DNA of 64,000 bases from an uncultured virus (IMG/VR IMGVR_UViG_3300001242_000018) (Duplodnaviria > Heunggongvirae > Uroviricota > Caudoviricetes), in the IMG/VR virus record IMGVR_UViG_3300001242_000018, positions 1 through 64,000 of that record; one strand, given 5' to 3'. The position numbers were made by a program, and so were the translations under genes. Of the stretch, positions 24,890 to 58,925 are shown in pieces. The notes under the pieces are model-generated. The model saw nothing but the letters and a program-made list of their open reading frames with translations, was not told the DNA's origin and did no database searches. Position 1 is the stretch's first letter, and each line of letters opens with the position of its first letter.

Positions 24890-25618
24890 ATGCAAAGGAT
24901 TATTGCGGAACTTAAGAAGATACACAACCCATTATTCTGTACGCAGATCGGTAATGAATATTACATCTGGAGACTTCTAACAAGAAAAGAAAATAAGTTT
25001 ATAGCTGGATTAGGGTTATCCGAAATGGATATGGAAGATGTAGTCTGTTCTACTTGCGTACTTTACCCGGTAGTAAATTGGAGTGTGTATAAAGCTGGTG
25101 TGGCTAAAGCACTCTTTCCTTTAATATACGATGAGTCTGGATATAGAGATCCTAATCAAAGTCGGTACCTTTATGAATTCTATCGACAAGAGATAGAAGA
25201 TAATAAAGTACATCAAGCCGAACTTATGATAAGTACAGCTTTCCCAGAGATTAGTATAGAAGAAATGAGCGACTGGGATGCCGCAAAGCTATGGAAAAAG
25301 GTAGCTGAAGCTGAGTATAAACTAAATCTTATCAATAAGGTATACTCTATACCCGGGTATAGTCTTAGCGTTACATTTAATGACGAAGAGAAATCATCTA
25401 AGAAAGAAATGACTGAGAAAATGAGAGCAGCGGGTATAGATCCGATGCTAACGATAGATAAATCACGTTGGGATAAGAACTATTTAAAATTCCCATTCAT
25501 TGTTGGTCAAAGGGATTTTATAAACGGTATAGAGTGGGAAAATCCTACGGAAAATGAGGAGTTATTCAATGCCGTCCAACGACAACTTTTGGAAAGAAAG
25601 TATAGACGGAAATCCTGA
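24890..25618 (+). CDS. Tail assembly chaperone 2
   Basis: YIWRLLTRKE...TCVLYP...AGVAKALFPLIYDESGY, paralogous to the previous gene. Confidence 0.6.
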   Translation: MQRIIAELKKIHNPLFCTQIGNEYYIWRLLTRKENKFIAGLGLSEMDMEDVVCSTCVLYPVVNWSVYKAGVAKALFPLIYDESGYRDPNQSRYLYEFYRQEIEDNKVHQAELMISTAFPEISIEEMSDWDAAKLWKKVAEAEYKLNLINKVYSIPGYSLSVTFNDEEKSSKKEMTEKMRAAGIDPMLTIDKSRWDKNYLKFPFIVGQRDFINGIEWENPTENEELFNAVQRQLLERKYRRKS

Positions 25619-28600
25619 ACATCATAAATACCTAAACCCAGATCATTACTACGAGAATAAAGGTTCGCCATTGCGAACCTTTTTGACTACTACGGGTATA
25701 GGTACTGCTTTATTCCTTGGAGGTAGACATGCTTTTAGAAGAGGTGCTTTTAACGATATCTCTAAAAGCTTTATTAAAGCTATGGGAAGGTTTAGGCCTA
25801 CCGAAGCTGATGCTATACTATCTTCTGTTAAAGAGTGGGCTAAAGGGCCATTACCATGGGATCAATATAGTACTCTTAAAGATAAACTCCTTGGTAGTCA
25901 CGGTATACTCGGGGCCGGCTGGGAAGAAAGTATGACAGAGTTATCCAATAAGATTGCTGCTAAAAGAGCTAATTTAATGCAAAGAGGCGTTACTGGTGGT
26001 AAGCTTATTACAGACGATCTTGATATAGAACGGCGGCTCAGAGAAACTGAACGAGTAATGGAGCATGCTCGCACGGTCGATACTAGAAGACAACGTATTG
26101 TTCAGGATAAAACTAAACAGTTTCTTTCTAGTTATAACGAGTACACACAAGAGATGCGTGAAACAGATCTTAGAAAGTACGGTATGCGTCGGGCTACCGT
26201 AGGCGATCTTTGGAATCACCAAAATAGTAAAGGTGCTTTATTCAATAGAAACCGATTAAATAGTCGTGACATAATCTCTAAGTACAGAGTAGAACTGGGT
26301 GAACAAAATCTATTTAATAAAATGGCAGACCCTTGGGTTTTTATCGACGAGGCAAGTAAATTACACGATTTGCGTTATTGGCCTAAGGTAGGAAAGTCGG
26401 TACTCAATTCTATGGAAACTGATTTCGGGTTACCGTTTGTAAACTTTAATCCGCTGGCAATGTTTCACGTTGGAGATATGTTAAATGTTAGAGATAGACC
26501 AATGATTCATCTTATGAGTCCGGATGAAATACAACCTGTATTATCCGGTAGAGAATCTACAAAGAAACTTTATCTAATGCTTGATGATATGCTTCATGAT
26601 GTAGAAGATGCAAGTAAAGCACCCATCAAAGGTTATTTAATAAATGCGAAGGTCGGCCCTGGGCGGACATTCTTACAAGGAATTAGCGGTGCCGGATTAC
26701 CAAAACCTGAAGATTACCAATATCCTACTAGTGGATGGCGTAAACATTGGGCCTGGTTCACTAGGAAACTTGATATAGGTCACCAGCAAAAAGATGATTA
26801 TAATCGAGAATTTGATATAACGAATGCTCTAACAGATATTATAGCAAAGCCAGCTGATATGTTTTGGAAGCACATGCTTCCGTACGAGAATCGTGGTCTT
26901 TTCTCCGGTAGACCTTTCGGTTCCACCTGGGGTAGAGCCGGACAAGAAGAAAGTGAAACAAACTGGCTTTTTATGCGTAGCATTCGCTATGAAAATCCTA
27001 TAGATATTACAAAGCAATTCTTCGCTCATAGAGATCGTCCAGAAGATACAACTACACTGTCAGTGCCGTTTTATTATTTCTTTTCTAGGTTAGATGCAGC
27101 CTTGGCTACATTTCGTTTAGGTTTATCTGCCGAGCATAGGAAAAGTGGGGCTGATATATTTCTTAACATGGTATTGCGTAGAGCTGTACCTGTATGGGCC
27201 GGACTTGAAGCTTGGGATTATATGAATTATGAAACTGAGAATCTTACAGGGATTCGCCCGGATGATATGATAGCTGAAGGTTATTCAGAGGTAAGTACGG
27301 GTATAGCCAAAGTTAAAGATGTACTTGGTATAACAGACATGGCTAAACAAGTTAAGAACCTTTTACCCGGTGGCGAGCAGATTGCAGAATTTCCATTGAT
27401 AGGTAGATTCTTCGATCTTGACGATACCGAGGAAGAAACCGAGGAGTTCTGGGAAAAAGGAGAAGTTCCGATAAGAAAAGGTCGTTGGTGGTTTATGGGA
27501 AATACGCCACTAACCGGCAGCCGGACGATGTATTACTCACCAAATTGGGTAAGACGTACTAAATCTCATTATGAATATACTGATACTCAGTACGGGAGTG
27601 AGGGTGAATACTTTGCTAACGCACCTTATCCTACTCCTCGATACCCATTAGCTCCTTTACGTCATTTCGTAACTGAACCATATCACTTTGAAGAAAAACA
27701 TTATAAAGATAGACCATACCTATTAACCGGTGGAACACCTGAACTTGAGGAGTTTCCATTGATAGGCCCACTACTTAATGCAACTATTGGCCAACTATTA
27801 AAACCACAAAGACCAATGCATCCCGAAGTATGGCGGAAGATAGAGGGCGAGGATGATACCACAGTAGCTACTGAGCCAAAGAGTTACGAAACCCCTAATG
27901 ATGAATATTACAACCAACAATGGGGCTATAAGAAAATCGGGGCCGGGCCTGCCATTGGTACTGTAATGAAAGATTCTCATAAAGAAAGTATTGTAGCTGT
28001 TATTGATAGTGGTGTGGATAAAGATCATCCAGATCTTAAGGGTAAGATACTACCTGGAAAAAGCTTTGCTAAGAGGTATAAAGACTTTCAACATACCGAG
28101 GTTAGTTACGCTCCGTGGGATGAAGATACGATCGGACATGGTACCCACGTTACAGGTACTATAGCGGCTATTGGCGATAATAAAGAGGGTGTGGCCGGTG
28201 TAGCTTGGCCCTCGGTTAAGATATTGCCTATTAAGGTATTTGATAGTGGAGGAGCTCCTACTGAAGATGTTGTTAAAGGAATTGATTATGCGATAAAGTG
28301 GAGAGGAGCTAATGGTCAGAAGGTAGATGTCATTAACATGAGCCTTGGTAGCCCTAACATTAACCCAGGTTATAGTGATGCAATTAAACGAGCGTACAAC
28401 TCTGGTATCGTAGTAGTTGCGGCCTCTGGTAATGAGTATCAGACCGAACATGTAGGAAGTCCTGCTATATATCCGGAAGCTATCGCGGTAGGCGCCGTTG
28501 GGCCTAATATGAAAAAAGCAGATTTCTCTAATAGCGGTGCAGGTCTTGATGTGGTGGCGCCCGGTGTCGATATTGCAAGTACGCTACCAGAAGATTCTCA

Positions 28601-31355
28601 AATGGGTAGTATGTACGGAGTGTCAAGTGGTACTTCAATGGCTACTCCTCATGTAGCTGCTACTGCGGCGCTTCTAAAAACACAACGTCCCGACCTTACC
28701 CCGGCGGAAATTAAGTTCCTAATTCAATCTACGGCTGTAGATTTAGAGGAAGATGGATGGGATAAAGAGACTGGTCACGGCCTTGTTAATGCTTATACGG
28801 CAACGTCTATCTTATCAGGAATGAGTGATGAAGAGCGGGAACTTATCCGTAAAGGTGGCTCACTTGAAAGTGAGCAGATTAATAAAGAACGTATTGCTCT
28901 TATTAATGCAATACGCGAAAGTGGTATAACTAAAGCCGCATTTGAAACAGTAGGTAAGTCTTTAGTTGATAAATATAATAGAGAAATTAAGAACCCTGTT
29001 GATACAGATATGGCTATACTCCAAACCTGGGAGAATGTTAAAGAGTTCGGTGGCTTTTATGGCTTTAGTACAGAACTTCTTTATGATACAGGTAAGGGTA
29101 TAGAACCTCAAATTGCCACAGCTCGTGCTATGAGTTCTTATAGAAGAGAATTCTGGGATACGGAACTCGGTGGCATTCCGGGCGATATTAACGAAATTGC
29201 CCGTCGCTTTATTGGACACCGTGAGAAATGGGAGAATCGATATAATCCTGTACCAAATACTATGCCGGATTGGCTGCCCGGTGAAGAATACTTCACGGAT
29301 TTTAAAACTGGCGACCCTTATGTAAAAATACGTCGTGGAGAAATGCGATTACCAGGAGAGGCGTACGAATCTCTCCATCCCGATACGGCAGCCGAGGTTG
29401 AAAAGGCTTTAGAAGATCCTGAAATAAGAAGGAAATTAGAAGCCGGAGAGATTCATAGAGGAGAGTTATACGGCCCTATATCAAGGTTTAGAATTTTGGC
29501 AGATGTGGCTCCTTGGTCTACACAGTATGACGAAGCCTCTAAGTTCGTTACAGAAATGAAGAAAACCAAAGAGCAAGAACAAGAGGTTAAAGAGATAAGA
29601 AAACAAGTAAAAGACCGTAACGATCCGATACGCCTATACCCGTATAGGTTTAAAGATAAAGAGACTAAGAGTGAGACTGTTACTGTAACCAAGGTACTTG
29701 ATGATTGGGAAGATAGTCATGATTACTTCTTCTATACCAAAGAGTATCCAGACAATCCTATCAAACTTGCCGGCCTACGTGTACCAATGAGTAAGGAGAA
29801 GGCGGGAGCTCGTCAATTCCTTAACAAGTATATCAAACCGGGTGAACAAGTGACTATCGAGTATACGGCAGACGATGTAACTAAAATCAACGATGACACA
29901 TATAAGACTATCTCAGCGGTAGTATATACGGGTAATGAGAATCTAAATAGGCAACTATTAGAGCAAGACTTAGCTAATGAAAAAGATAACGATTTTACTC
30001 CGGCTGGAATAGTTGCTAGGTTTACGCCGAGTGAGCGAGCAATGGGTCAAGCATGGGAGAAATTCGCTCACCTGGATACGCCATTTCATACAAAGCTTTT
30101 GCAGGTACGTTCTCCTATCGAAAGCTACAAACGTCGTGATTTGTACGGCAAAGACTGGCAGATGTGGCAAGATCCCTGGGAAGATTATGTTGTTCCGACT
30201 TATCAATCGATAATGTCTAAAGGGATGATAGTAGGAGGACTGTTTGGCGGATTTATGGGATACTTAGCCGGACGTAAACGGTTTGGTAAGATTATAGCTA
30301 CAGGTCTGGGTGCCGTACTGGGTGGTACTGGCGGTGCATATTTCACTGGACACGAATTCGTAACAGGTGAAACCTGGGTACCAGAACGTCGTAAGAAAGA
30401 ATGGGAAACCCATGAGTATTACGATATGTTAAAGTATTTGAAGAATGTCTCTCTTTATAATAAGTATGCTCAAGAAGCGCTTGATACAGAGAAGTTCGAT
30501 GTTAAGAAGTACCTTCAAGAGAAAGATGAGCAGAAGAAGATTGACAGTAAACGTACTAATGAATTAGAAAGTGCTAAACGTGATATTAAAGGTACTACTG
30601 ATAATGTTGACGTTAATGAATGGATTACCAAGCTAAATCTTACAGGTAACCCCAGGGATGAGCGCGAACTTATCAAACTGATTAACCAAGAATTAACCAA
30701 GTTAAAAGCTCCAAAGAAAGAAGAGAAACTAACACCACTGGCTCAAAAGGCTCTTGATTATTACAATGAAAGTAAAAGTACTATGTACGGTCATAAGCCA
30801 CAAGATCCTCTAAAGGATCTGTTACGAGCTATACCAAAGAAAGAGCGACAATACTTAGAAGGCTTTATTAATGCTACCCCGGATGAAAGAGAAGAGCTAC
30901 GTGATATAATGTCTCCATATATGAAACGTATTGTTCAGGAAGCCTGGGGAGAGAAAGCGTCTGAAAAGCAAAGTCTTCTTGAATACTTCAAAGCTCACTT
31001 CTTACCTGACCCGGAGTGGGGCGGCTGGCGAGAAGATGTAAATCTTAATAACGTAAAGGTTAAATATATTAAAGCTGAAAGTATGGATCCGTCTGAATTT
31101 GATATATGGCCAGATGATGAGATTGCTGCTAATGAACCAAATGTTCCGCCGGCGCCAAAGATTAATATACATGAGACGGCCAATACTATTAAGAGTAAAT
31201 TACAATCTATTCTAGGTGGCGCCGGAATAGATGCTGAAATACAGATAGAACCAAACGATACGGGACAATTATCAGTAGAGGTTGAGACACAAAGAGATAT
31301 TAGACAAGATATAGCCAATTGTATGAATAACTATAGTAGTTTGGTATTAGGTTAG
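25569..31355 (+). CDS. Giant tape-measure-position protein with an internal subtilisin (S8) domain and an SNase-like domain
   Basis: S8 triad motifs VAVIDSG, GHGTHVTG and GTSMATPHVA. SNase-like VTVTKVLD...IKLAGL...NLNRQLL. Gly-rich hydrophobic segments near 30220-30350. Start ATG 25569 follows GAGGAG. Confidence 0.75.
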   Translation: MPSNDNFWKESIDGNPEHHKYLNPDHYYENKGSPLRTFLTTTGIGTALFLGGRHAFRRGAFNDISKSFIKAMGRFRPTEADAILSSVKEWAKGPLPWDQYSTLKDKLLGSHGILGAGWEESMTELSNKIAAKRANLMQRGVTGGKLITDDLDIERRLRETERVMEHARTVDTRRQRIVQDKTKQFLSSYNEYTQEMRETDLRKYGMRRATVGDLWNHQNSKGALFNRNRLNSRDIISKYRVELGEQNLFNKMADPWVFIDEASKLHDLRYWPKVGKSVLNSMETDFGLPFVNFNPLAMFHVGDMLNVRDRPMIHLMSPDEIQPVLSGRESTKKLYLMLDDMLHDVEDASKAPIKGYLINAKVGPGRTFLQGISGAGLPKPEDYQYPTSGWRKHWAWFTRKLDIGHQQKDDYNREFDITNALTDIIAKPADMFWKHMLPYENRGLFSGRPFGSTWGRAGQEESETNWLFMRSIRYENPIDITKQFFAHRDRPEDTTTLSVPFYYFFSRLDAALATFRLGLSAEHRKSGADIFLNMVLRRAVPVWAGLEAWDYMNYETENLTGIRPDDMIAEGYSEVSTGIAKVKDVLGITDMAKQVKNLLPGGEQIAEFPLIGRFFDLDDTEEETEEFWEKGEVPIRKGRWWFMGNTPLTGSRTMYYSPNWVRRTKSHYEYTDTQYGSEGEYFANAPYPTPRYPLAPLRHFVTEPYHFEEKHYKDRPYLLTGGTPELEEFPLIGPLLNATIGQLLKPQRPMHPEVWRKIEGEDDTTVATEPKSYETPNDEYYNQQWGYKKIGAGPAIGTVMKDSHKESIVAVIDSGVDKDHPDLKGKILPGKSFAKRYKDFQHTEVSYAPWDEDTIGHGTHVTGTIAAIGDNKEGVAGVAWPSVKILPIKVFDSGGAPTEDVVKGIDYAIKWRGANGQKVDVINMSLGSPNINPGYSDAIKRAYNSGIVVVAASGNEYQTEHVGSPAIYPEAIAVGAVGPNMKKADFSNSGAGLDVVAPGVDIASTLPEDSQMGSMYGVSSGTSMATPHVAATAALLKTQRPDLTPAEIKFLIQSTAVDLEEDGWDKETGHGLVNAYTATSILSGMSDEERELIRKGGSLESEQINKERIALINAIRESGITKAAFETVGKSLVDKYNREIKNPVDTDMAILQTWENVKEFGGFYGFSTELLYDTGKGIEPQIATARAMSSYRREFWDTELGGIPGDINEIARRFIGHREKWENRYNPVPNTMPDWLPGEEYFTDFKTGDPYVKIRRGEMRLPGEAYESLHPDTAAEVEKALEDPEIRRKLEAGEIHRGELYGPISRFRILADVAPWSTQYDEASKFVTEMKKTKEQEQEVKEIRKQVKDRNDPIRLYPYRFKDKETKSETVTVTKVLDDWEDSHDYFFYTKEYPDNPIKLAGLRVPMSKEKAGARQFLNKYIKPGEQVTIEYTADDVTKINDDTYKTISAVVYTGNENLNRQLLEQDLANEKDNDFTPAGIVARFTPSERAMGQAWEKFAHLDTPFHTKLLQVRSPIESYKRRDLYGKDWQMWQDPWEDYVVPTYQSIMSKGMIVGGLFGGFMGYLAGRKRFGKIIATGLGAVLGGTGGAYFTGHEFVTGETWVPERRKKEWETHEYYDMLKYLKNVSLYNKYAQEALDTEKFDVKKYLQEKDEQKKIDSKRTNELESAKRDIKGTTDNVDVNEWITKLNLTGNPRDERELIKLINQELTKLKAPKKEEKLTPLAQKALDYYNESKSTMYGHKPQDPLKDLLRAIPKKERQYLEGFINATPDEREELRDIMSPYMKRIVQEAWGEKASEKQSLLEYFKAHFLPDPEWGGWREDVNLNNVKVKYIKAESMDPSEFDIWPDDEIAANEPNVPPAPKINIHETANTIKSKLQSILGGAGIDAEIQIEPNDTGQLSVEVETQRDIRQDIANCMNNYSSLVLG

Positions 31356-39463: not shown

Positions 39464-42400
39464 ATGAGTGGCTATACTATTACTGAAGCATTTTTAAGTC
39501 CTTGTAGGAATAGACCTGGTGATAAAAGAACTCCTCAAGGGATCGTTATCCATAGGACGGGTGTGAATCAACCCGACCCTAATATTATACGAAGAAATAT
39601 GCAAAACGATAATCCTTATCCGGCTAGTTCTCATTACGTTATAGGTTCTAATCAAATACTTTATATTATCCCGGATGATGAGCGGGCTCATCATACCGTA
39701 GGTGGTAATAATTGTATTGGTATTGAAACTTGCGAACCTATTACAGCCGGCTCGTTAGCGAGATTGGTGTGGCTATGTGCTTACTTATGCGATAAATGGA
39801 GATTTCCTAAAACAGAGCAAAGTATTAAACCTCATAGCTACTACGATTCCAATACACGACCACACGATCCATTTAGCTGGAGTCTCTATAAGGCCGGTAA
39901 GGCAGATCCTAATGGAGTGATCGATCCTTTTGCTTTCTATAGAGCTATTAATCAATCTACTTCCGGTGGAGGTACTGCTGTAGTACCTCCACCATCATCG
40001 ACGCCCGTTGGTATATCGACGGATGCCGTTAGCGGTATACAACCATTCAATACGGATTTCATAAAATGGGATGCAATCGATCTATTCGGACTAGATACAG
40101 ATATCGTTCCCGGGTGGCGTAACAGAGCAACACCATTTCATTTGCGTATTGGTGATAGCGTATTCTTTGTTCCACCAACTTCTATTAAAGTTAAAACTGT
40201 TGGAAATGTGTCTACTATGAAATCCATGAGATCTAAAAGTAGTATTAAGACTAAGAGTGGATATACCCAAACAGAGATACGTTTAACTCTGTACTTTGGT
40301 GATATCGAGCAGATTAATGGATTCCCGGTAGCGGGGCCGGCCGGTGAGATTTACAGCATGGATGGATTAAGACCACTTCTGGCACAATTCATGAGAACGC
40401 CAATCATACCTGTAGTTAATGAACGACTTAATGACGTGTTTGGTATATATAATGTATGCCTATCGTCTATAACTGGATATACGGATAAGGACTTCCCCGA
40501 TACATTGTCTGTAGAACTTATTATGCATAAGACAACAGTAATGCCATATATCCAAAGGCATGATGCCGATCTTGACCGTATGATTTGTTATCCATTATTC
40601 CGTTGGTATTATCAGCAAGTACTTCAGCCTACAGCATTGGGACGGGTGAATCAATCATGGTTACAGCCGATTGTTAATTATATGAATGGCTCATTTAAGT
40701 TTTATATTATTGATAGTAGTTTTCTTGAAACTAACGATGTAGTCTCTATTGCGGCCGGCATTGCTATGGTAGAGGTAGATATACCAAATGATGAAGTAAT
40801 AATCAATTCCATGTCTTTAACTACTCATAATTTATTTAGTGCGGTACATTTACAAATGCATACCGATCCGTCTCACCAATACATGGGATCGTTAGATACT
40901 AATATCTTTATTCAGCTAGAGACAGAGAATAGAGATATTGTTAAACAATTTGTTGACTTGCAAAAACTTACAGAAGAATATGCTATCAACTATCGTGATA
41001 AATTAGTTTCAGGCTTTGTAAAGTTAGAGAATGAACTGGTTCAGTTATTCGGAGTAGAGTATGTAATGATTCATGCTATAGAAATTGATACCGTAGAAAA
41101 TGAGCCAGGCATGACACGAATTGCTATAGCTTGTGTCAGTTACGACCCGAGTCAGAAAGATAATGAAGCTGTTGACGGTTTCCTGCCGTTTCATGATAAA
41201 ACCAATCTAGTAGGTAATGTACAAAGCGTACTGTTAAATAGTATGGCAGATGCGCCTACCGAGTACTTACAGACTATGGTTGCTGAAGAGGTTGTAAATA
41301 ACTTAGACCTATACCCGGATCTCGAATTGCCATCGTATAATCAAGTGGCACAAGCTCTGCTCGATATAAACGCGCAGAGAAGGCAACGTAATTTAAAGGA
41401 TCTTGATTTTAATGTGTTTGTCTCTCCGGCATTAAGAGGTAAGAATTATTCAGGCTTTAGAGTCGATCCTGACTTTTATGTTAAATACGATTATTTACAT
41501 CTTGGCGGAATGGTTAATCCAGCTATAGTAAATGGAGGTACAATCAATAGTAGCTATCCTGCAGGTATTGGTATAGATCCTAACGCACCTACACCAGTCT
41601 CGACAACCACCGTTACGACTAATACTACAACTTCAGTTCCGGGAGAACAAAGGACATTCGAGATAACAGCGTATTGCGCTTGTCAAAAGTGTTGTGGCAA
41701 GTCTCCGGGGAGTCCTGGTTACGGTGTTACAGCAAGTGGAGTTATGGTTAAAGAGTGGCATACCATTGCTGTAGATAGGAATGTTATACCAATGGGTAGC
41801 TGGGTATATATTCCTTACTTTAAGAACAAACCTAATGGAGGCTGGTTTAAAGCCGAAGATACCGGCGGGGCCATTAAGGGTAATAGGATAGATGTTTATT
41901 ACAAGAGCCACCAGGAGGCATTAAACTTCGGAAGACAAAGATTGCCTGTCATAATAAGTAAAGAAAAGGGAGCGACTCCTCCCAGCGGAACTGCCGGAAC
42001 TACAATGTCTGTTAATCCTACAGCTAACTCTTCTAAAACAAAAACAGAGTTCATAGCACTGGTTAAGGCTCAAGTAGGTAAACCTTATGTTGTTACTACA
42101 GAGGGGCCTGATACTTTCGATTGCTCTGGTCTTGTACAATGGACATTCGCTCAGTTTGGAGTTAATATAACTCGCCTTACTTATACTCAATGGAAACAGT
42201 GTCAAGAAATAACCAAAGGTGATTTGACTGTAGGTGATTTGATTTATACAAGATGGGGAGATGGCCCAGATCCGGTCAATCCAGACCATGTTGGTATATA
42301 CTTAGGCGATAATACTATTGTTCATGCTAAGGGTAAAGCTTATGGAGTAGTTCAAATTAGTGGTAACAGTCTTGGTGCAGATTCTCGCTACTTTAGATAC

Positions 42401-46635: not shown

Positions 46636-46977
46636 ATGCCAGCAGCTTGTAGAATAGGTGATAGAATGAATGGCAGCGTCGGACACCACAATGGTCATGG
46701 TTGTCCAGATAACTGATGTGGTGGCCACTCGGTTACGGGTGGCCAAGTGACCGGGAGTCACAATATGTTTATTAACGGTAAGTCCGCAGCAAGACTAAGC
46801 GATACAGGTTATACAACCTGCCCATGTTGTGGAGCAGGATATACGAATGTACAGGCTAGTACTAGTTTATTTGTAAACGGTCGGGGTATTGTAAGAGTTG
46901 GAGATGGAGTGAATATTCATCTCCAAGGGGCCGGAAATATGGTAAGCGGTTCTAATAACTTCTTTGTTGCGAGGTGA
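46636..46977 (+). CDS. PAAR spike-tip protein with an in-frame TGA at codon 27 (candidate selenoprotein), 113 aa
   Basis: SD GAGGTG then ATG 46636: MPAACRIGD...GHHNGHGCPDN-TGA-CGGHSVTGGQVTGSHNMFINGKSAARLSD...CPCC...VRVGD...H...GSNNFFV. The three PAAR-like repeats are complete only if TGA 46714-46716 is read through. Confidence 0.85.
46722..46745 (+). promoter_or_regulatory. SECIS-like hairpin in the PAAR gene
   Basis: TGGCCACTCG-GTTA-CGGGTGGCCA: 10-bp stem with one G-U pair. The loop begins after 15 nt following the TGA. Confidence 0.7.
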
Positions 46978-53586: not shown

Positions 53587-56500
53587 ATGGCAAAGGACTC
53601 TTTGCAATTTAATATCTATGATAAAGAGTCATTTGTCATCCCAAATATTGACGGCATCGATTTTCTAGTTGATGCCGTCACTTTACATAAAACAGTACAT
53701 GAGTATGTAAAGGACGGGCTATTAATCGATTTGATTGCTGCCCGAGCTACAGAGGATGACAAACATGGCTCTAATCCATTATCTACATGGATTAATCTCG
53801 CTGCAAGCGGAGATTGGAAGTTGACCGAGCTTTCTGACTTTAACTTTATTTCGGACGGCTGGATAGGGGATGGAACTAATGCAAATCCCTATGCTCTTTT
53901 ATTTAACGGTATAAATAGTAAATGCACTCTTAGCTATAATCCTGTTTATGATACCTTTACCCTGGAAGCGTGGGTTCAGACCGATCAATTACACCAGATT
54001 GATAATGAGATAAATACAGGTTCTTCTCCAGGATTAGATGGTCAAAAGTATTTGTTTTATCCTTCTAAATATATAGATACTAGAGTTGGTGCAGGGGTAT
54101 CTATAGGTTCTAACGGAGTTAGTGTTTACGAATACGGAGATGCTCATTTTCCCGCAGTGGCCGTTTATAGCGGTGAGGTTACGGGAATAACCCATGTCAT
54201 TGTAGAGTATATAGATAGGCAACCGTTTATTTATATTAATGGAGTATTGGTACGTATTGGACTTAAGTCTAATATGACACGAGTATGGTCACCAATTATT
54301 ATGGGCGCAGGCCCTTATGGAGCCTTTGATGGTTGTGTTATTATGGCCAGAATATATAATAGAGTACTTAGTCAAGAAGAGAAACAAATCAACTATCAGG
54401 CTGGATTTGTATTATTCTCTTATCCTATAATCCCTTATCACATTACTACCGGAGATAATCAGATAGATTGTAGCGAAGTTAAAAAGATCCTTAATATAAT
54501 GGCTGTACAAATAGAACCCGAGGGTACTTTGTTAAGATACTTGGTAAGCTTTGATAATAAAGGTAGCTGGCTAACTTATAATACCGTATGGCAAGAAGCG
54601 TCACTTGACGATATAGATAGAGTAGGTATGACAGCAGACGAACTAAATACTGTAGATTGGAACTATTTTCAACCGGGCGTACATGGAAATTTAAATATAG
54701 CAGTTGCTCTTGCTACCATAGATATAAGTATTACACCATCTGTAAGTAAACTTTTAATAGAATACGTCGGAAACTTACTAGGCGTAATTACTAGGACAAC
54801 TATAGCATGTTATATAAATAACGTATCAGAAGTTACCTTTACTCATCCTTCTGATGAAGTAGAGAATATACCAACAATAGTATCTAGCGGAGCTGCTATA
54901 GATACAATAGCTGGTACTATAAGCAATACCTGTAGAATTAATGGTATTAAAGAAAGAATGGATAATAGTATAAATATTCCTATCTTATCGCGAGCTGGAG
55001 CTTTAATTGCGAGTCATTTAGTAGGAGTTTATAAAAGTAGTCATAATAACGAGGAAGATAAGATAGACTTTTTAATTATTAATGATCTAATTAGTATCGA
55101 TCCCGTTATACCTAAACTTTCTGGTAATGTTTTAGAGTATTTAAAAGGTCTTCATATACCGTCTTACTACAGTACTAAACCTTTAGATTTGATATGTGAG
55201 ACTGTTGACATTGAAACATTAAAGTCGATTCAAATATTGGATAAAACACCTTCTATATTTACTTCTATATGTAGCGATCGACCGATTAATATAACCGTTA
55301 CTACAGATGATTATACAAGGATAGATACATCTAATATAGTAACAATTAAAGACATAAATAAGGACTATTACAGTAATGGAAATGAAAGATTCTTATTTAG
55401 CTTTGACAATAGAAATACTTGGTATTCTTATGATTATAGTACCAACCAATGGGTTATTGTAAGTTTAGATGATATTCAGGAGAAAGGAATGACATTTTGG
55501 CAAGTTAGTTCTATTCCTGAAGAAACTTGGAGTACAAAGTTGTCAGAATGGTTAGACATGGCTATTAGATTAATAGCCTATCCTAGCGATAGTAATGAAA
55601 CAATATACGATTTCACTTATACCGGCAATTACATAACATGGATAGCACCTTTTACAGGCGATTACCGATTAGAAGTATGGGGTGCTGAAGGTGGATTGCC
55701 GGGAGGAAGTTCAATAACCGGTGGTCTCGGAGGTTATACTAAAGGTACGATTACTTTAACCCAGGGTGATATTTTATACATCTGTATTGGTGGATATCCG
55801 GGTCGTGCTAAAGCAGGAGGTTGGAATGGTGGAGGTAATGGAGGTACCGATACCAGTAGTAGTGTTCGTTATGGTGGTGGCGGTGGTGGCGCTACTGATA
55901 TAAGAGTTGGCGATACTTCTCTTTCTAATAGAATTATTATTGCTGGCGGTGGCGGTGGCGGTGGCGAGTATGGAAATTCTCGTTACGGCGCTGGCGGCGA
56001 AATACAAGCACAATCGGGCGCTGGTCAATTAACTACCAATCCAGCACGAACGGGTGCTGGTTATCAATGGTCTTGGGGTGGTGGAGGAGGTTCTCAAACA
56101 CAAGGAGGTGTAGGAGCCGGAACGTATGTAAAAGGTGGGAATGGGACGCTATATCAAGGCGGCGCAGGAGATACTGGTTGTTGCTCTGGTTCAGGCGGTG
56201 GCGGTGGCGGTTATTATGGCGGCGCGGCCGGTGGTAACGATTCGCCACATGGTTCTGGATATTCAGCAAATGGCGGCGGTGGTTCTAGTTATACAGACGG
56301 AGTATCGGACGGTACTATGCAGATTGGAGTTCAAGCCGGGAATGGTAAGGCTAGAATAACCTTATTAAATACGACAATGTATACTGTTAATGGATTCACT
56401 TTCAGAACAATTGTTAATAAATTCGATGTCTACCAGATACCCATGTTAACGGGGTTTAAATTAGATATTCCTATTCACGAGGTTTTAGAAGAGAAAGATT

Positions 56501-57171
56501 CTCCTGTATTAATACCTTTTCGTACCTTAAAGAACTTTGATGGAAATGCTATAAGTATAATCACAGGACTTCTTACTAATAACTCAAGTCATTATATCAC
56601 AGGAATATTGGAATCTGGAGATTTAGATAAACTGTTCACTATTGATATTCCAAAGAGCTTTACAGGACTTAAATCGGAAATAGTCTGTAATTTCTTAATA
56701 AGTAAATCGAGTTATACCGAACCAGATGTTGATGATATCTTATATATACAAGATTTGCCTAAAGAACAGGTAAAGAGCGATACTATCTATTATGACAAAG
56801 AAGAACAGTTTGCAATGCTCAATATTATTGATAATCGTGAAGATACAGAATTTATAGTTATGACAAATGACTATAATAGAATTGACACAAGACAAGCCGT
56901 TGCTATTCAAGATATTGTGGCCGATTATCAAGAGATCGATGGTATACAAATTAGATTCTTATTAAGCTTTAATAATCGAGAAACCTGGTACATTTACGAC
57001 CACGATACTAGTTCTTGGATACAGAAGGGTATAGATAACATTCACAATACAGGAATGACATTCTGGCAACTTAAATCCATACCGCGAGATGCTTGGCATA
57101 AAGCTTTAACTAACTGGTTAAATGTTTGTGTAGGATTTAAAACCTTTAGTGACAACTGGATTTACGGATAG
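53587..57171 (+). CDS. Receptor-binding/tail fibre protein: LamG-like domain, glycine-rich domain and repeated SFDN...W modules
   Basis: FTLEAWVQT...YINGV...ARIYNRVLSQEE (LamG_3-like). YRLEVWGAEGG...GGGGGATDIR...RIIIAGGGGG (Gly_rich_2-like). Confidence 0.72.
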   Translation: MAKDSLQFNIYDKESFVIPNIDGIDFLVDAVTLHKTVHEYVKDGLLIDLIAARATEDDKHGSNPLSTWINLAASGDWKLTELSDFNFISDGWIGDGTNANPYALLFNGINSKCTLSYNPVYDTFTLEAWVQTDQLHQIDNEINTGSSPGLDGQKYLFYPSKYIDTRVGAGVSIGSNGVSVYEYGDAHFPAVAVYSGEVTGITHVIVEYIDRQPFIYINGVLVRIGLKSNMTRVWSPIIMGAGPYGAFDGCVIMARIYNRVLSQEEKQINYQAGFVLFSYPIIPYHITTGDNQIDCSEVKKILNIMAVQIEPEGTLLRYLVSFDNKGSWLTYNTVWQEASLDDIDRVGMTADELNTVDWNYFQPGVHGNLNIAVALATIDISITPSVSKLLIEYVGNLLGVITRTTIACYINNVSEVTFTHPSDEVENIPTIVSSGAAIDTIAGTISNTCRINGIKERMDNSINIPILSRAGALIASHLVGVYKSSHNNEEDKIDFLIINDLISIDPVIPKLSGNVLEYLKGLHIPSYYSTKPLDLICETVDIETLKSIQILDKTPSIFTSICSDRPINITVTTDDYTRIDTSNIVTIKDINKDYYSNGNERFLFSFDNRNTWYSYDYSTNQWVIVSLDDIQEKGMTFWQVSSIPEETWSTKLSEWLDMAIRLIAYPSDSNETIYDFTYTGNYITWIAPFTGDYRLEVWGAEGGLPGGSSITGGLGGYTKGTITLTQGDILYICIGGYPGRAKAGGWNGGGNGGTDTSSSVRYGGGGGGATDIRVGDTSLSNRIIIAGGGGGGGEYGNSRYGAGGEIQAQSGAGQLTTNPARTGAGYQWSWGGGGGSQTQGGVGAGTYVKGGNGTLYQGGAGDTGCCSGSGGGGGGYYGGAAGGNDSPHGSGYSANGGGGSSYTDGVSDGTMQIGVQAGNGKARITLLNTTMYTVNGFTFRTIVNKFDVYQIPMLTGFKLDIPIHEVLEEKDSPVLIPFRTLKNFDGNAISIITGLLTNNSSHYITGILESGDLDKLFTIDIPKSFTGLKSEIVCNFLISKSSYTEPDVDDILYIQDLPKEQVKSDTIYYDKEEQFAMLNIIDNREDTEFIVMTNDYNRIDTRQAVAIQDIVADYQEIDGIQIRFLLSFNNRETWYIYDHDTSSWIQKGIDNIHNTGMTFWQLKSIPRDAWHKALTNWLNVCVGFKTFSDNWIYG

Positions 57172-57179
57172 GAGGTAGT

Positions 57180-58925
57180 GTGGTGGATTTACAAGTATTT
57201 AATTTTAACTATACCGGTAGTCAACAAGAAGTAACACTACCTCCCGGTATATATAAGCTTGAAACATGGGGCGCTCAGGGTGGTAATAATGGAGCTCCCG
57301 GTGGTTACGCCTCTGGTATTTTAAACTTAGGGGATACTGAAACTCTTTATATATATATTGGAGGAATAGGAGCTCCTAATTCTACTGGTTGGAATGGAGG
57401 CGGTTTTGCTAGTCCTTATGGCGGCGGCGGTGGTGGTACCGATATACGAAGAGGAGGACAAACTCTTAATGACCGTATCCTGGTTGCTGGCGGCGGAGCT
57501 GGACACTCTCATACAGCTCAAGGTGGCGCTGGTGGTGGATTAATTGGTATTGGTGGAACTACTGGCAGTGGAGGTACACAAACACAAGGAGGTAGTTCAG
57601 GAGGAGTAAGTGGAACATATGGTAGCTTTGGTTACGGTAGTAATGGAATAAGTCATGGTTCTGGTGGCGGAGGTGGATGGTACGGTGGCGGAGGTGGATA
57701 TACTTGAGGTAGTTCCGGTGGAGGAGGTTCCTCCTATTATGGTGGAGTTCTAAACGGTATCACTACCCCTGGAATTCGTACTGGATATGGTAAGGTTGCT
57801 ATAACTTTACTTGCCTTACTGGGTATAGAAGAAGCTGTTGAAACTGCGGTATTTAATAGTTCTGGTAATTATCAGACCTTTATTGTACCAACTACAGGAA
57901 TTTATCAATTAGATCTTTTCGGTGCTGTAGGTGGTGCTTATTCTTACCCTGGTGGTTCTGGTAGTCATGTTCGTGGTCAAATGTTATTAGATTCCGGTCA
58001 AGAGTTATATATATTTGTCGGCGGGGATGGAACGGGCTTTATTGGCGAAGGTGGAGGATGGAATGGCGGTGGTAATGCCGGGCCGCTAGGGCCTGGTGCA
58101 GGTGGTGGCGGTGCTACCGATATTAGAAGAGGCGGTATAGAATTAGAAAATAGAATTATCGTTGCTGGTGGCGGTGGCGGCGGTGGGAATTTAAGCGCCG
58201 GTAGTTCCGGTGGAGAAACTTTGCATTTAACTACAATATTAGGCAATGGTCAAAACCATCCAGAGATTGGCGGTGGTGGCGGTGGTGGCTACTACGGTGG
58301 TATGGCCGGTGATATAAATAGGGGCGGATATGGCGGTTCTTCGTATGCTGGTAATTTACGTAACCCTATTATTAATACAAATATATGGTATAATGCAGGT
58401 TTGGTTATTATATCAAGATTGCCTACGTATACCTCGTTTATAAATTCATTAACGTTTAAGACTATCGTTAGTTCTTTCGAAATTATTAAGCTGACCTTCT
58501 TAATGGGCGATTTAAAATCTAGTAAGCCCGTCGATATAGAAATAGAAATACTATCATCCGATAGACAAGAGACTATACCTGAAGAGCAAATCGATACTGA
58601 AAAACTATATTGTATTGATAGTCAACAAATTACGATAACTGATGATAATAACCGAATTGATACAAGCGATACTATTACGATTGAAGATATAGAGATTGAC
58701 CCTAATCAGTTATACGATATTAAGATCTTATTAAGTTTTGACAATAGAAATACCTGGTTAGCTTATGATCATAATAGTCATACTTGGATAGAATATAATA
58801 CTAACGATGTTAGTATATATGGCATGGCCTTCTGGCAACTTAAATCTATACCAGAAGAAGTCTGGAGTGAGAAACTTTCTATCTGGTTAAATCTTTGTAT
58901 ATGGGTTCAGACAGGAGATGTATAG
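57180..58925 (+). CDS. Double glycine-rich domain tail protein with an in-frame TGA at codon 176 (candidate selenoprotein), 581 aa
   Basis: ORFs 57180..57707 and 57981..58925 are one frame. The 91 codons after TGA 57705-57707 (GSSGGGGSSYYGGVLNGITTPGIRTGYGKVAIT...YQLDLFGAVGG...) complete domain 1 and begin domain 2 without another stop. Confidence 0.82.
57715..57742 (+). promoter_or_regulatory. SECIS-like hairpin in the glycine-rich gene
   Basis: GGAGGA-GGT-TCCTCC core (57720-57734), extendable by CCGGT pairing with ATT and GG across bulges. Loop (A)GGU(U) lies about 18 nt after the TGA. Confidence 0.55.

Follow-up and report, generated by a model that had tools for sequence, protein, structure and literature searches.

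A phage tail gene with an in-frame UGA codon that is probably read as selenocysteine

Almost all selenoproteins known from prokaryotes are cellular enzymes that act in redox chemistry or handle metals. In E. coli fdhF, where SelB acts on a SECIS inside the open reading frame, an in-frame UGA is followed by a coding hairpin whose loop lies 18 nt past the UGA, with AGGU at +21 to +24, and homologues carry Cys; in bacteria, the signal for SelB is a hairpin with G in its loop, placed 3′ of the codon at such a distance. The same features are found at the locus described here, where a genuine in-frame UGA interrupts an otherwise intact tail gene in 64,000 nt of DNA from an uncultured groundwater virus of the Caudoviricetes (the window; positions 1 to 64,000 of IMG/VR record IMGVR_UViG_3300001242_000018). 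In contrast to bacterial selenoprotein genes, this is a viral structural gene and not a redox enzyme, its hairpin has no lower stem, and its first glycine-rich domain has neither a CxxU/UxxC motif nor any other Cys.

By Pfam score and by fold (a beta-sandwich with a polyglycine bundle) the encoded protein belongs to the PF12810 ALK/LTK family of glycine-rich domains, which includes the phage fibres Bxb1 tail tip (9D93) and Pam3 fibre (7YPX), but it differs from that family in the UGA inside the gene and in a loop motif of the His/His/Cys type that few of the domains examined possess. Phages recoded to code 4, with TGA as Trp, likewise confine in-frame stops to structural genes while their hosts use the standard code (accessible part of Borges et al., bioRxiv 10.1101/2021.08.26.457843); here, in contrast, there are two sites only, each with a 3′ hairpin, TGA ends 14 genes, and 137 kb of the genome hold no suppressor tRNA or release factor. 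The large myoviruses Bacillus phage 0305phi8-36 and Moorella phage MTATph1 have a related major capsid protein and baseplate J, but the corresponding region of both isolates contains no PAAR gene and no PF12810 gene.

An intact tail gene with one internal UGA

The gene and its surroundings contain the following features.

53587–57171 (+): upstream paralogue; its one PF12810 domain is intact, with CC in the loop that precedes GGGGG-YY, and it shares the C-terminal domain of the tail gene
57170–57176 (+): ribosome-binding site AGGAGGT, 5′ of the GTG start
57180–58925 (+): 581-codon tail gene with one UGA inside; two PF12810 glycine-rich domains and the C-terminal domain common to the upstream paralogue
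57195–57815 (+): glycine-rich domain 1 (approximately residues 6–212), with the ALK/LTK glycine-rich fold and no Cys codon (AlphaFold2, Foldseek and Cys codon list)
57705–57707 (+): in-frame UGA, codon 176 of 581, where Cys is aligned in His/His domains
57981–57983 (+): ATG (Met268), chosen by gene callers as the start of a 314-aa piece (P0122); mid-domain, with no ribosome-binding site

Translation of 57180–58925 gives a GTG start, 175 codons, the single TGA and then 405 open codons. Around the stop the reading is GGGGYT*GSSGGGGSSYY, which places the TGA just before the closing GGGGSSY motif of a glycine-rich domain, as an earlier note made from the sequence alone had it. Restart at the ATG at 57981 was rejected, as this codon has no ribosome-binding site and lies within the second glycine-rich domain, the mid-domain position to which the same note had drawn attention. 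UGA176 is genuine and not an assembly artefact, because it is present in two metagenome loci (12,243 and 1,982 nt) that are 100% identical to the window, from a sample possibly common with the source, and in a contig from a second study (run X5) that covers 57497–57789 with 0 differences at a depth of 3.2; sequencing or assembly error is thereby ruled out. Runs X1–X3 yielded no contig over the site (X1 nothing, X2 and X3 unrelated pieces only), and no RNA run was among those listed as containing the sequence.

A genuine stop could still be a recent nonsense allele, derived from GGA, TGG or TGY and fixed in one strain, with the gene dead or nearly so, the upstream paralogue compensating, and only the second UGA of this phage, in its PAAR spike-tip gene, programmed. 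All carriers of UGA176 found in other assemblies and in the second study are indeed one strain, and the upstream paralogue has the same domains; on the other side, the 405 codons 3′ of the stop contain no second lesion and no assembly shows a variant.

Pfam identifies PF12810 in two stretches of the read-through protein (E 1.9e-47; 162.7 bits against a gathering cut-off of 24.5). From a 46-row alignment, with the U at codon 176 modelled as C, AlphaFold2 predicts domain 1 with a pLDDT of 95.8 and a pTM of 0.92, the prediction from the single sequence being poor (pLDDT 41). Foldseek searches with this model returned ALK/LTK ectodomains as the top PDB matches (ALK 7N00, E 1.8e-8), then the Bxb1 tail tip and the Pam3 fibre, while a PDB sequence search with the protein gave chance matches only. 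A receptor-binding role for the glycine-rich domain, as the earlier note supposed, is plausible in view of the two phage folds. Strands 191–200 and 205–212 of the modelled domain are encoded 3′ of the UGA, so that termination would leave the domain incomplete, in line with the note's reading. Its other suggestion was readthrough giving two isoforms, one short and one long; that both are functional is unlikely, since a 175-aa product would be without both of these strands of a confidently modelled domain.

Codon 176 among homologous domains and the hairpin that follows

Three features 5′ and 3′ of the stop enter the comparison.

57510–57512 (+): His111, first His of a putative His/His/Cys(Sec) site, aligned to His in P0225, P0204, P0178 and P0221
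57654–57656 (+): His159, second His of the putative site, from alignment with homologous domains
57720–57734 (+): SECIS-like hairpin with a 6-bp stem, a GGU loop 18 nt past the UGA, and AGGU at +21 to +24

Among 342 homologous domains the highest score belongs to P0225 (212 bits, 54% identity; the next reaches 197 bits). It has His/His/Cys opposite our His111, His159 and UGA176, reading GYTC against our GYT-stop, and with the three loops masked it still ranks first, narrowly (191 against 189 bits). Cys stands in the UGA176 column in 4 of the 342 domains, always accompanied by one or both of the His. Both His are present by pairwise alignment in five domains, two with Cys and three without. Across 357 closing segments, Cys is found at the UGA offset in 4 of 28 with a His before the poly-G run and in 6 of the 329 that lack one (Fisher p 0.005), and among His-bearing segments of our length in 4 of 5. 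For P0221, P0225, P0178 and one P0204 domain, the Cys at that offset is the sole Cys of the domain. Three of the four Cys proteins (P0225, P0178, P0204) are akin to each other, each of the four is a single record, and a quick, poorly resolved 51-row tree neither united the Cys domains nor joined ours to them. The loop is hypervariable: at position 176, the 52 loops of the same length include G (6), A (6), N (6), D (5), C (4) and W (1), and the homologue family P0004 reads YTGGSS here. The comparison at codon 176, made on domain homologues, gives Cys in the best match and in three more His-bearing domains, with other residues common in an otherwise variable loop. A Cys precedent that the earlier note saw in the GCCSG loop of the paralogue does not carry over, as that loop is a different one, preceding the GGGGG-WY motif where our His159 sits, and not the UGA position. 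From their places between the Gly runs, His111, His159 and residue 176 would be expected to come together at the polyglycine bundle's outer end. The loop His/His/Cys motif of P0225, P0221, P0204 and P0178 occurs in a subset of PF12810 domains in large proteins and is a possible metal site.

No orthologue of the whole gene was found in viral contigs or among GenBank phages. Metagenome contigs gave 12 loci, two identical to the window and ten with domain-level matches only, none of them a diverged orthologue; protein searches likewise gave domain-level matches only, and the C-terminal region matched the window's own piece only (lengths 222–709). DNA pattern scans of IMG/VR found an in-frame TGA in this loop in 0 of 65 loci, every TGA being out of frame, and the scan for the His subfamily found 0 loci. 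For a nonsense allele speak the absence of an orthologue, the 0 of 65 loci, the weak hairpin (below), the YTGGSS of P0004 and the codons of the gene itself, among which 82 lie one step from TGA, GGA being the commonest (33). Only 2 of the 82 are Cys codons, however, so a random nonsense hit would seldom fall on a Cys column, as this one does within a His/His/Cys motif otherwise kept by the domain. The stop is also spaced as for a SECIS from a hairpin with G in its loop, and the sole other internal UGA of the phage looks programmed. We rate the nonsense allele lower on account of the two Cys codons, and regard it as unlikely.

As the earlier note observed, GGA GGA GGT TCC TCC (57720–57734) pairs, forming the 6-bp stem at −7.6 kcal/mol, and the equivalent paralogous motifs fold less well (−2.7 and −4.7 kcal/mol in 33-nt windows). 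The pair probability of the hairpin is 0.91–0.99 in three of four longer windows and 0.09 in one. The bSECIS model, as given in the Fig. 2 legend of PMC13188914, has a loop of 3–9 nt with G in the first two places, a stem of 4–16 bp, a spacing of 16–37 nt and an energy of −7.5 kcal/mol or lower. In our own implementation of the model in that legend, which the control E. coli fdhF passes at 18 nt, the hairpin agrees with all four terms (GGU, 6 bp, 18 nt, −7.6), the energy marginally so against the cut-off.

Folding energy is no better than chance: for 57705–57760, the region for which the note had proposed a folding comparison, z is 0.07 against dinucleotide shuffles (five windows, −0.07 to 0.75), and over 45 nt p is 0.13–0.15 against synonymous recodings. 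The selection for RNA structure that the note read into the codon choice is therefore not borne out statistically. Synonymous recodings themselves pass the bSECIS test in 111–131 of 500 cases, with 247 of 1500 at a spacing of 16–20 nt (a range of 16–26%) and 88 of 1500 at exactly 18 nt. Passes occur at 78 of 322 positions in the glycine-rich DNA of the phage and, among 44 natural equivalents, in 10, or in 5 when the register is required. Since glycine codons form such hairpins easily, the hairpin by itself is weak evidence; it is compatible with a SECIS and perhaps shifts the odds four- to sixfold at most.

Insertion of Cys at UGA176 by host SelB and a non-canonical cysteine tRNA of the tRNA-ReC type would fit the Cys column and the hairpin equally well, but such tRNAs are rare in bacteria and we hold this to be very improbable. 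Given a SECIS, they do recode UGA, according to the accessible part of PMC13582414 (citing Vargas-Rodriguez 2018).

The second internal UGA, in the PAAR spike-tip gene

The source phage (G000) is represented by 137,036 nt, approximately 61% of a genome of ~220 kb or more, and is also known from a 220-kb contig. Exactly two internal UGAs occur in these 137 kb, both in tail genes and both passing the hairpin test, which is also passed by 41 of 500 sense codons and by 2 of 14 true UGA stops.

46636–46977 (+): PAAR spike-tip gene, with the other internal UGA of the genome at 46714–46716 (C-P-D-N-UGA-C)
46722–46745 (+): 10-bp hairpin with a GUUA loop, 15 nt past the PAAR UGA (energy z, recodings and window ranks)

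The PAAR hairpin is clearly under selection. Its z is −3.78; at −24.0 kcal/mol, against −10.1 ± 2.9 for synonymous recodings, it is equalled in stability by 0 of 500 of these. Its windows take ranks 1, 3 and 5 among 23,913 coding windows, and no other coding hairpin of the structural region is as stable. Its loop spacing of 15 nt is one short of the bSECIS model, and an alternative fold passes at 22. Phage G002, a relative whose baseplate J is 40% identical, has a PAAR gene at the equivalent place (L088, 9225–9575) with a TGA in the same His/Cys loop, the sole internal UGA in the 108 kb of G002. A long stem-loop follows at 16 nt with G23-U24, and is in the top 1% of coding windows of that phage but not beyond chance against synonymous recodings (p 0.215). 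The corresponding PAAR loop of G003 has Cys-Cys. In a PAAR cluster 71% identical to ours, 4 of 4 members (two on 31- and 126-kb contigs) are called from just past our UGA, and these called starts point to a UGA in them as well. The case for recoding is stronger for the PAAR UGA than for UGA176, and it recurs in G002. As the UGA is shifted in position between the two phages, and one alignment sets D-N-UGA-C against D-S-W-C with a Trp of G002, PAAR demonstrates recurrent recoding more firmly than it does the residue inserted.

Viral contigs scanned with one protein at a time (PAAR, baseplate J, and the product of the gene that precedes PAAR) gave no match, and a scan with an alignment of five baseplate J proteins gave 15 loci. 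PF05488 was present in 2 of 14 baseplate-J-related records, and PF12810 in 0 of the 5 searched, by a search run without a positive control. A scan for internal UGAs in eight records (G000 and 7 of the 15 related ones) found two in G000 and one in G002, all three with a hairpin at a spacing of at least 15 nt; the other six records contributed eight candidates, one with a hairpin, which by eye resemble adjacent genes.

Further features of the late region were seen in passing. CPCC in PAAR and a C-C-G-C cluster (MYCCGCAAG, G000 69617–69625) in the gene for a 3,482-aa tail protein (62021–72469) make several Cys clusters in the tail. Other very stable late-gene hairpins lie at 39950–39995, 53635–53680 and 58074–58115 of the window and at G000 72526–72575 and 75205–75250, three of the five being 35–55 nt past a start codon and one having a UUCG loop. 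At 25554–31355, the window encodes a 1,933-aa protein of the tape-measure region with a subtilisin-like protease domain.

Genetic code, host and the reading of UGA176

The genetic code of the phage is standard, with TGA serving as 14 of 112 true stops in G000, and genome-wide use of code 4 or 15 is ruled out for the sequenced 137 kb. Eleven tRNAs were found, together with a degenerate tRNA-Met (CAT) at 110350–110425 (minus strand), inside the tRNA cluster, that ARAGORN had missed. In the 137 kb (~61% of the genome) there is no tRNA with a UCA anticodon, no tRNA-Sec above the cut-off and no GGQ-type release factor motif, and no sel gene was seen there. One low-threshold tRNA-SeC call was rejected, being antisense within a gene and not tRNA-shaped.

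Both UGAs might nevertheless be read as Trp, either by a leaky Bacillota host or through a suppressor tRNA in the remaining ~39% of the phage genome (an early code-4 recoding of late genes), with the hairpin incidental or only slowing termination. The two sites lie in structural genes, like those of recoded phages (bioRxiv 10.1101/2021.08.26.457843, accessible part), the PAAR UGA can be aligned to the Trp of G002, and the incompleteness of G000 leaves room for the tRNA. Read-through of UGA at ~6% is cited for wild-type B. subtilis in the accessible text of PMC7918605, and near-cognate tRNA-Trp variants are described in that of PMC13092985. True TGA stops are also backed by a TAA or TAG within 7 codons more often than other stops (11 of 14 against 32 of 98; Fisher p 0.002), an excess that may be an artefact because many TGA stops sit in the ribosome-binding site of the next gene (GAGGTGA). 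Against a Trp reading stand the 137 kb devoid of UCA-anticodon tRNA and release factor motif, and the codon counts of the late genes, which hold 344 TGG and 2 internal TGA where a code-4 phage would have many in-frame TGA at Trp positions. The Cys column, moreover, goes unexplained by a Trp reading, as does the exceptional hairpin of PAAR, and we consider this reading improbable.

The host can be judged from the relatives of the phage and from its gene content. The major capsid protein is 47% and 45% identical, and baseplate J 38% and 32% identical, to those of Bacillus phage 0305phi8-36 and Moorella phage MTATph1, respectively, and G000 encodes the anaerobic ribonucleotide reductase NrdD/NrdG; together these suggest an anaerobic member of the Bacillota. 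Clostridia and anaerobes are rich in selenoproteins (PMC1794560, accessible part). The NrdD gene (G000 112420–115806, minus strand) contains an intein and a LAGLIDADG domain, and a transposase insertion lies in the tail region of MTATph1 (L014, 3559–5801).

Selenocysteine, inserted at UGA176 by the SelA/B/C/D machinery of the host, is to our mind the probable reading. It is the most economical one because it takes in the Cys column, the fdhF register of the hairpin and the second UGA site together. Selenocysteine in an exposed loop, as the earlier note proposed, is thus the best reading now, by way of the His/His/Cys homologues and the PAAR UGA; the note's own arguments from hairpin selection and the GCCSG loop are weak. 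Under selenocysteine insertion, SelB of a Sec-competent host would bind the GGU loop 18 nt 3′ of UGA176 and deliver Sec-tRNA, yielding one 581-residue virion tail protein, in which Sec would replace the Cys that accompanies two His in similar domains. The resulting His/His/Cys(Sec) group would most likely bind a metal or take part in redox chemistry, and its loops would lie at the outer end of a polyglycine-II bundle that may have a part in host binding. The PAAR spike-tip gene would use the same device, and failed insertion at UGA176 would leave an incomplete domain that is probably degraded. To judge from its genes, the phage probably builds selenium into its particle. It is possible, though we put it forward tentatively, that a phage lineage on anaerobic Bacillota uses host SelB to place Sec in two outward virion parts, the PAAR tip and a His/His/Sec fibre site, and assembles complete tails only in selenium-replete, Sec-competent hosts.

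The recoding mechanism is already known, and the setting in a phage virion is new within the literature searched. The 119-family table of a 2026 selenoprotein catalogue (PMC13188914) has neither PAAR nor PF12810, and the word ‘phage’ is absent from it. The terms looked for are likewise absent from the main text of PMC12013277, and the accessible text of PMC2398784 and PMC9402790 names no phage selenoprotein. Phrase searches of a literature that included few subscription papers, and no supplements, turned up nothing on selenoproteins of phages.

The analysis also brings to light a His/His/Cys motif, previously unnoticed, that some PF12810 domains carry. Databases keep genes of the present kind as fragments (P0122, P0270–P0274). 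If the selenocysteine reading is true, the 21st amino acid would have a use not seen before, in parts of the virion, phage assembly would be tied to the selenium metabolism of the host, and, as the host needs selABCD, such codons would offer a sequence-based clue to host identity. There would then be two families of non-enzyme selenoproteins, and a phage ‘virion selenoproteome’ that gene callers hide by splitting the genes.
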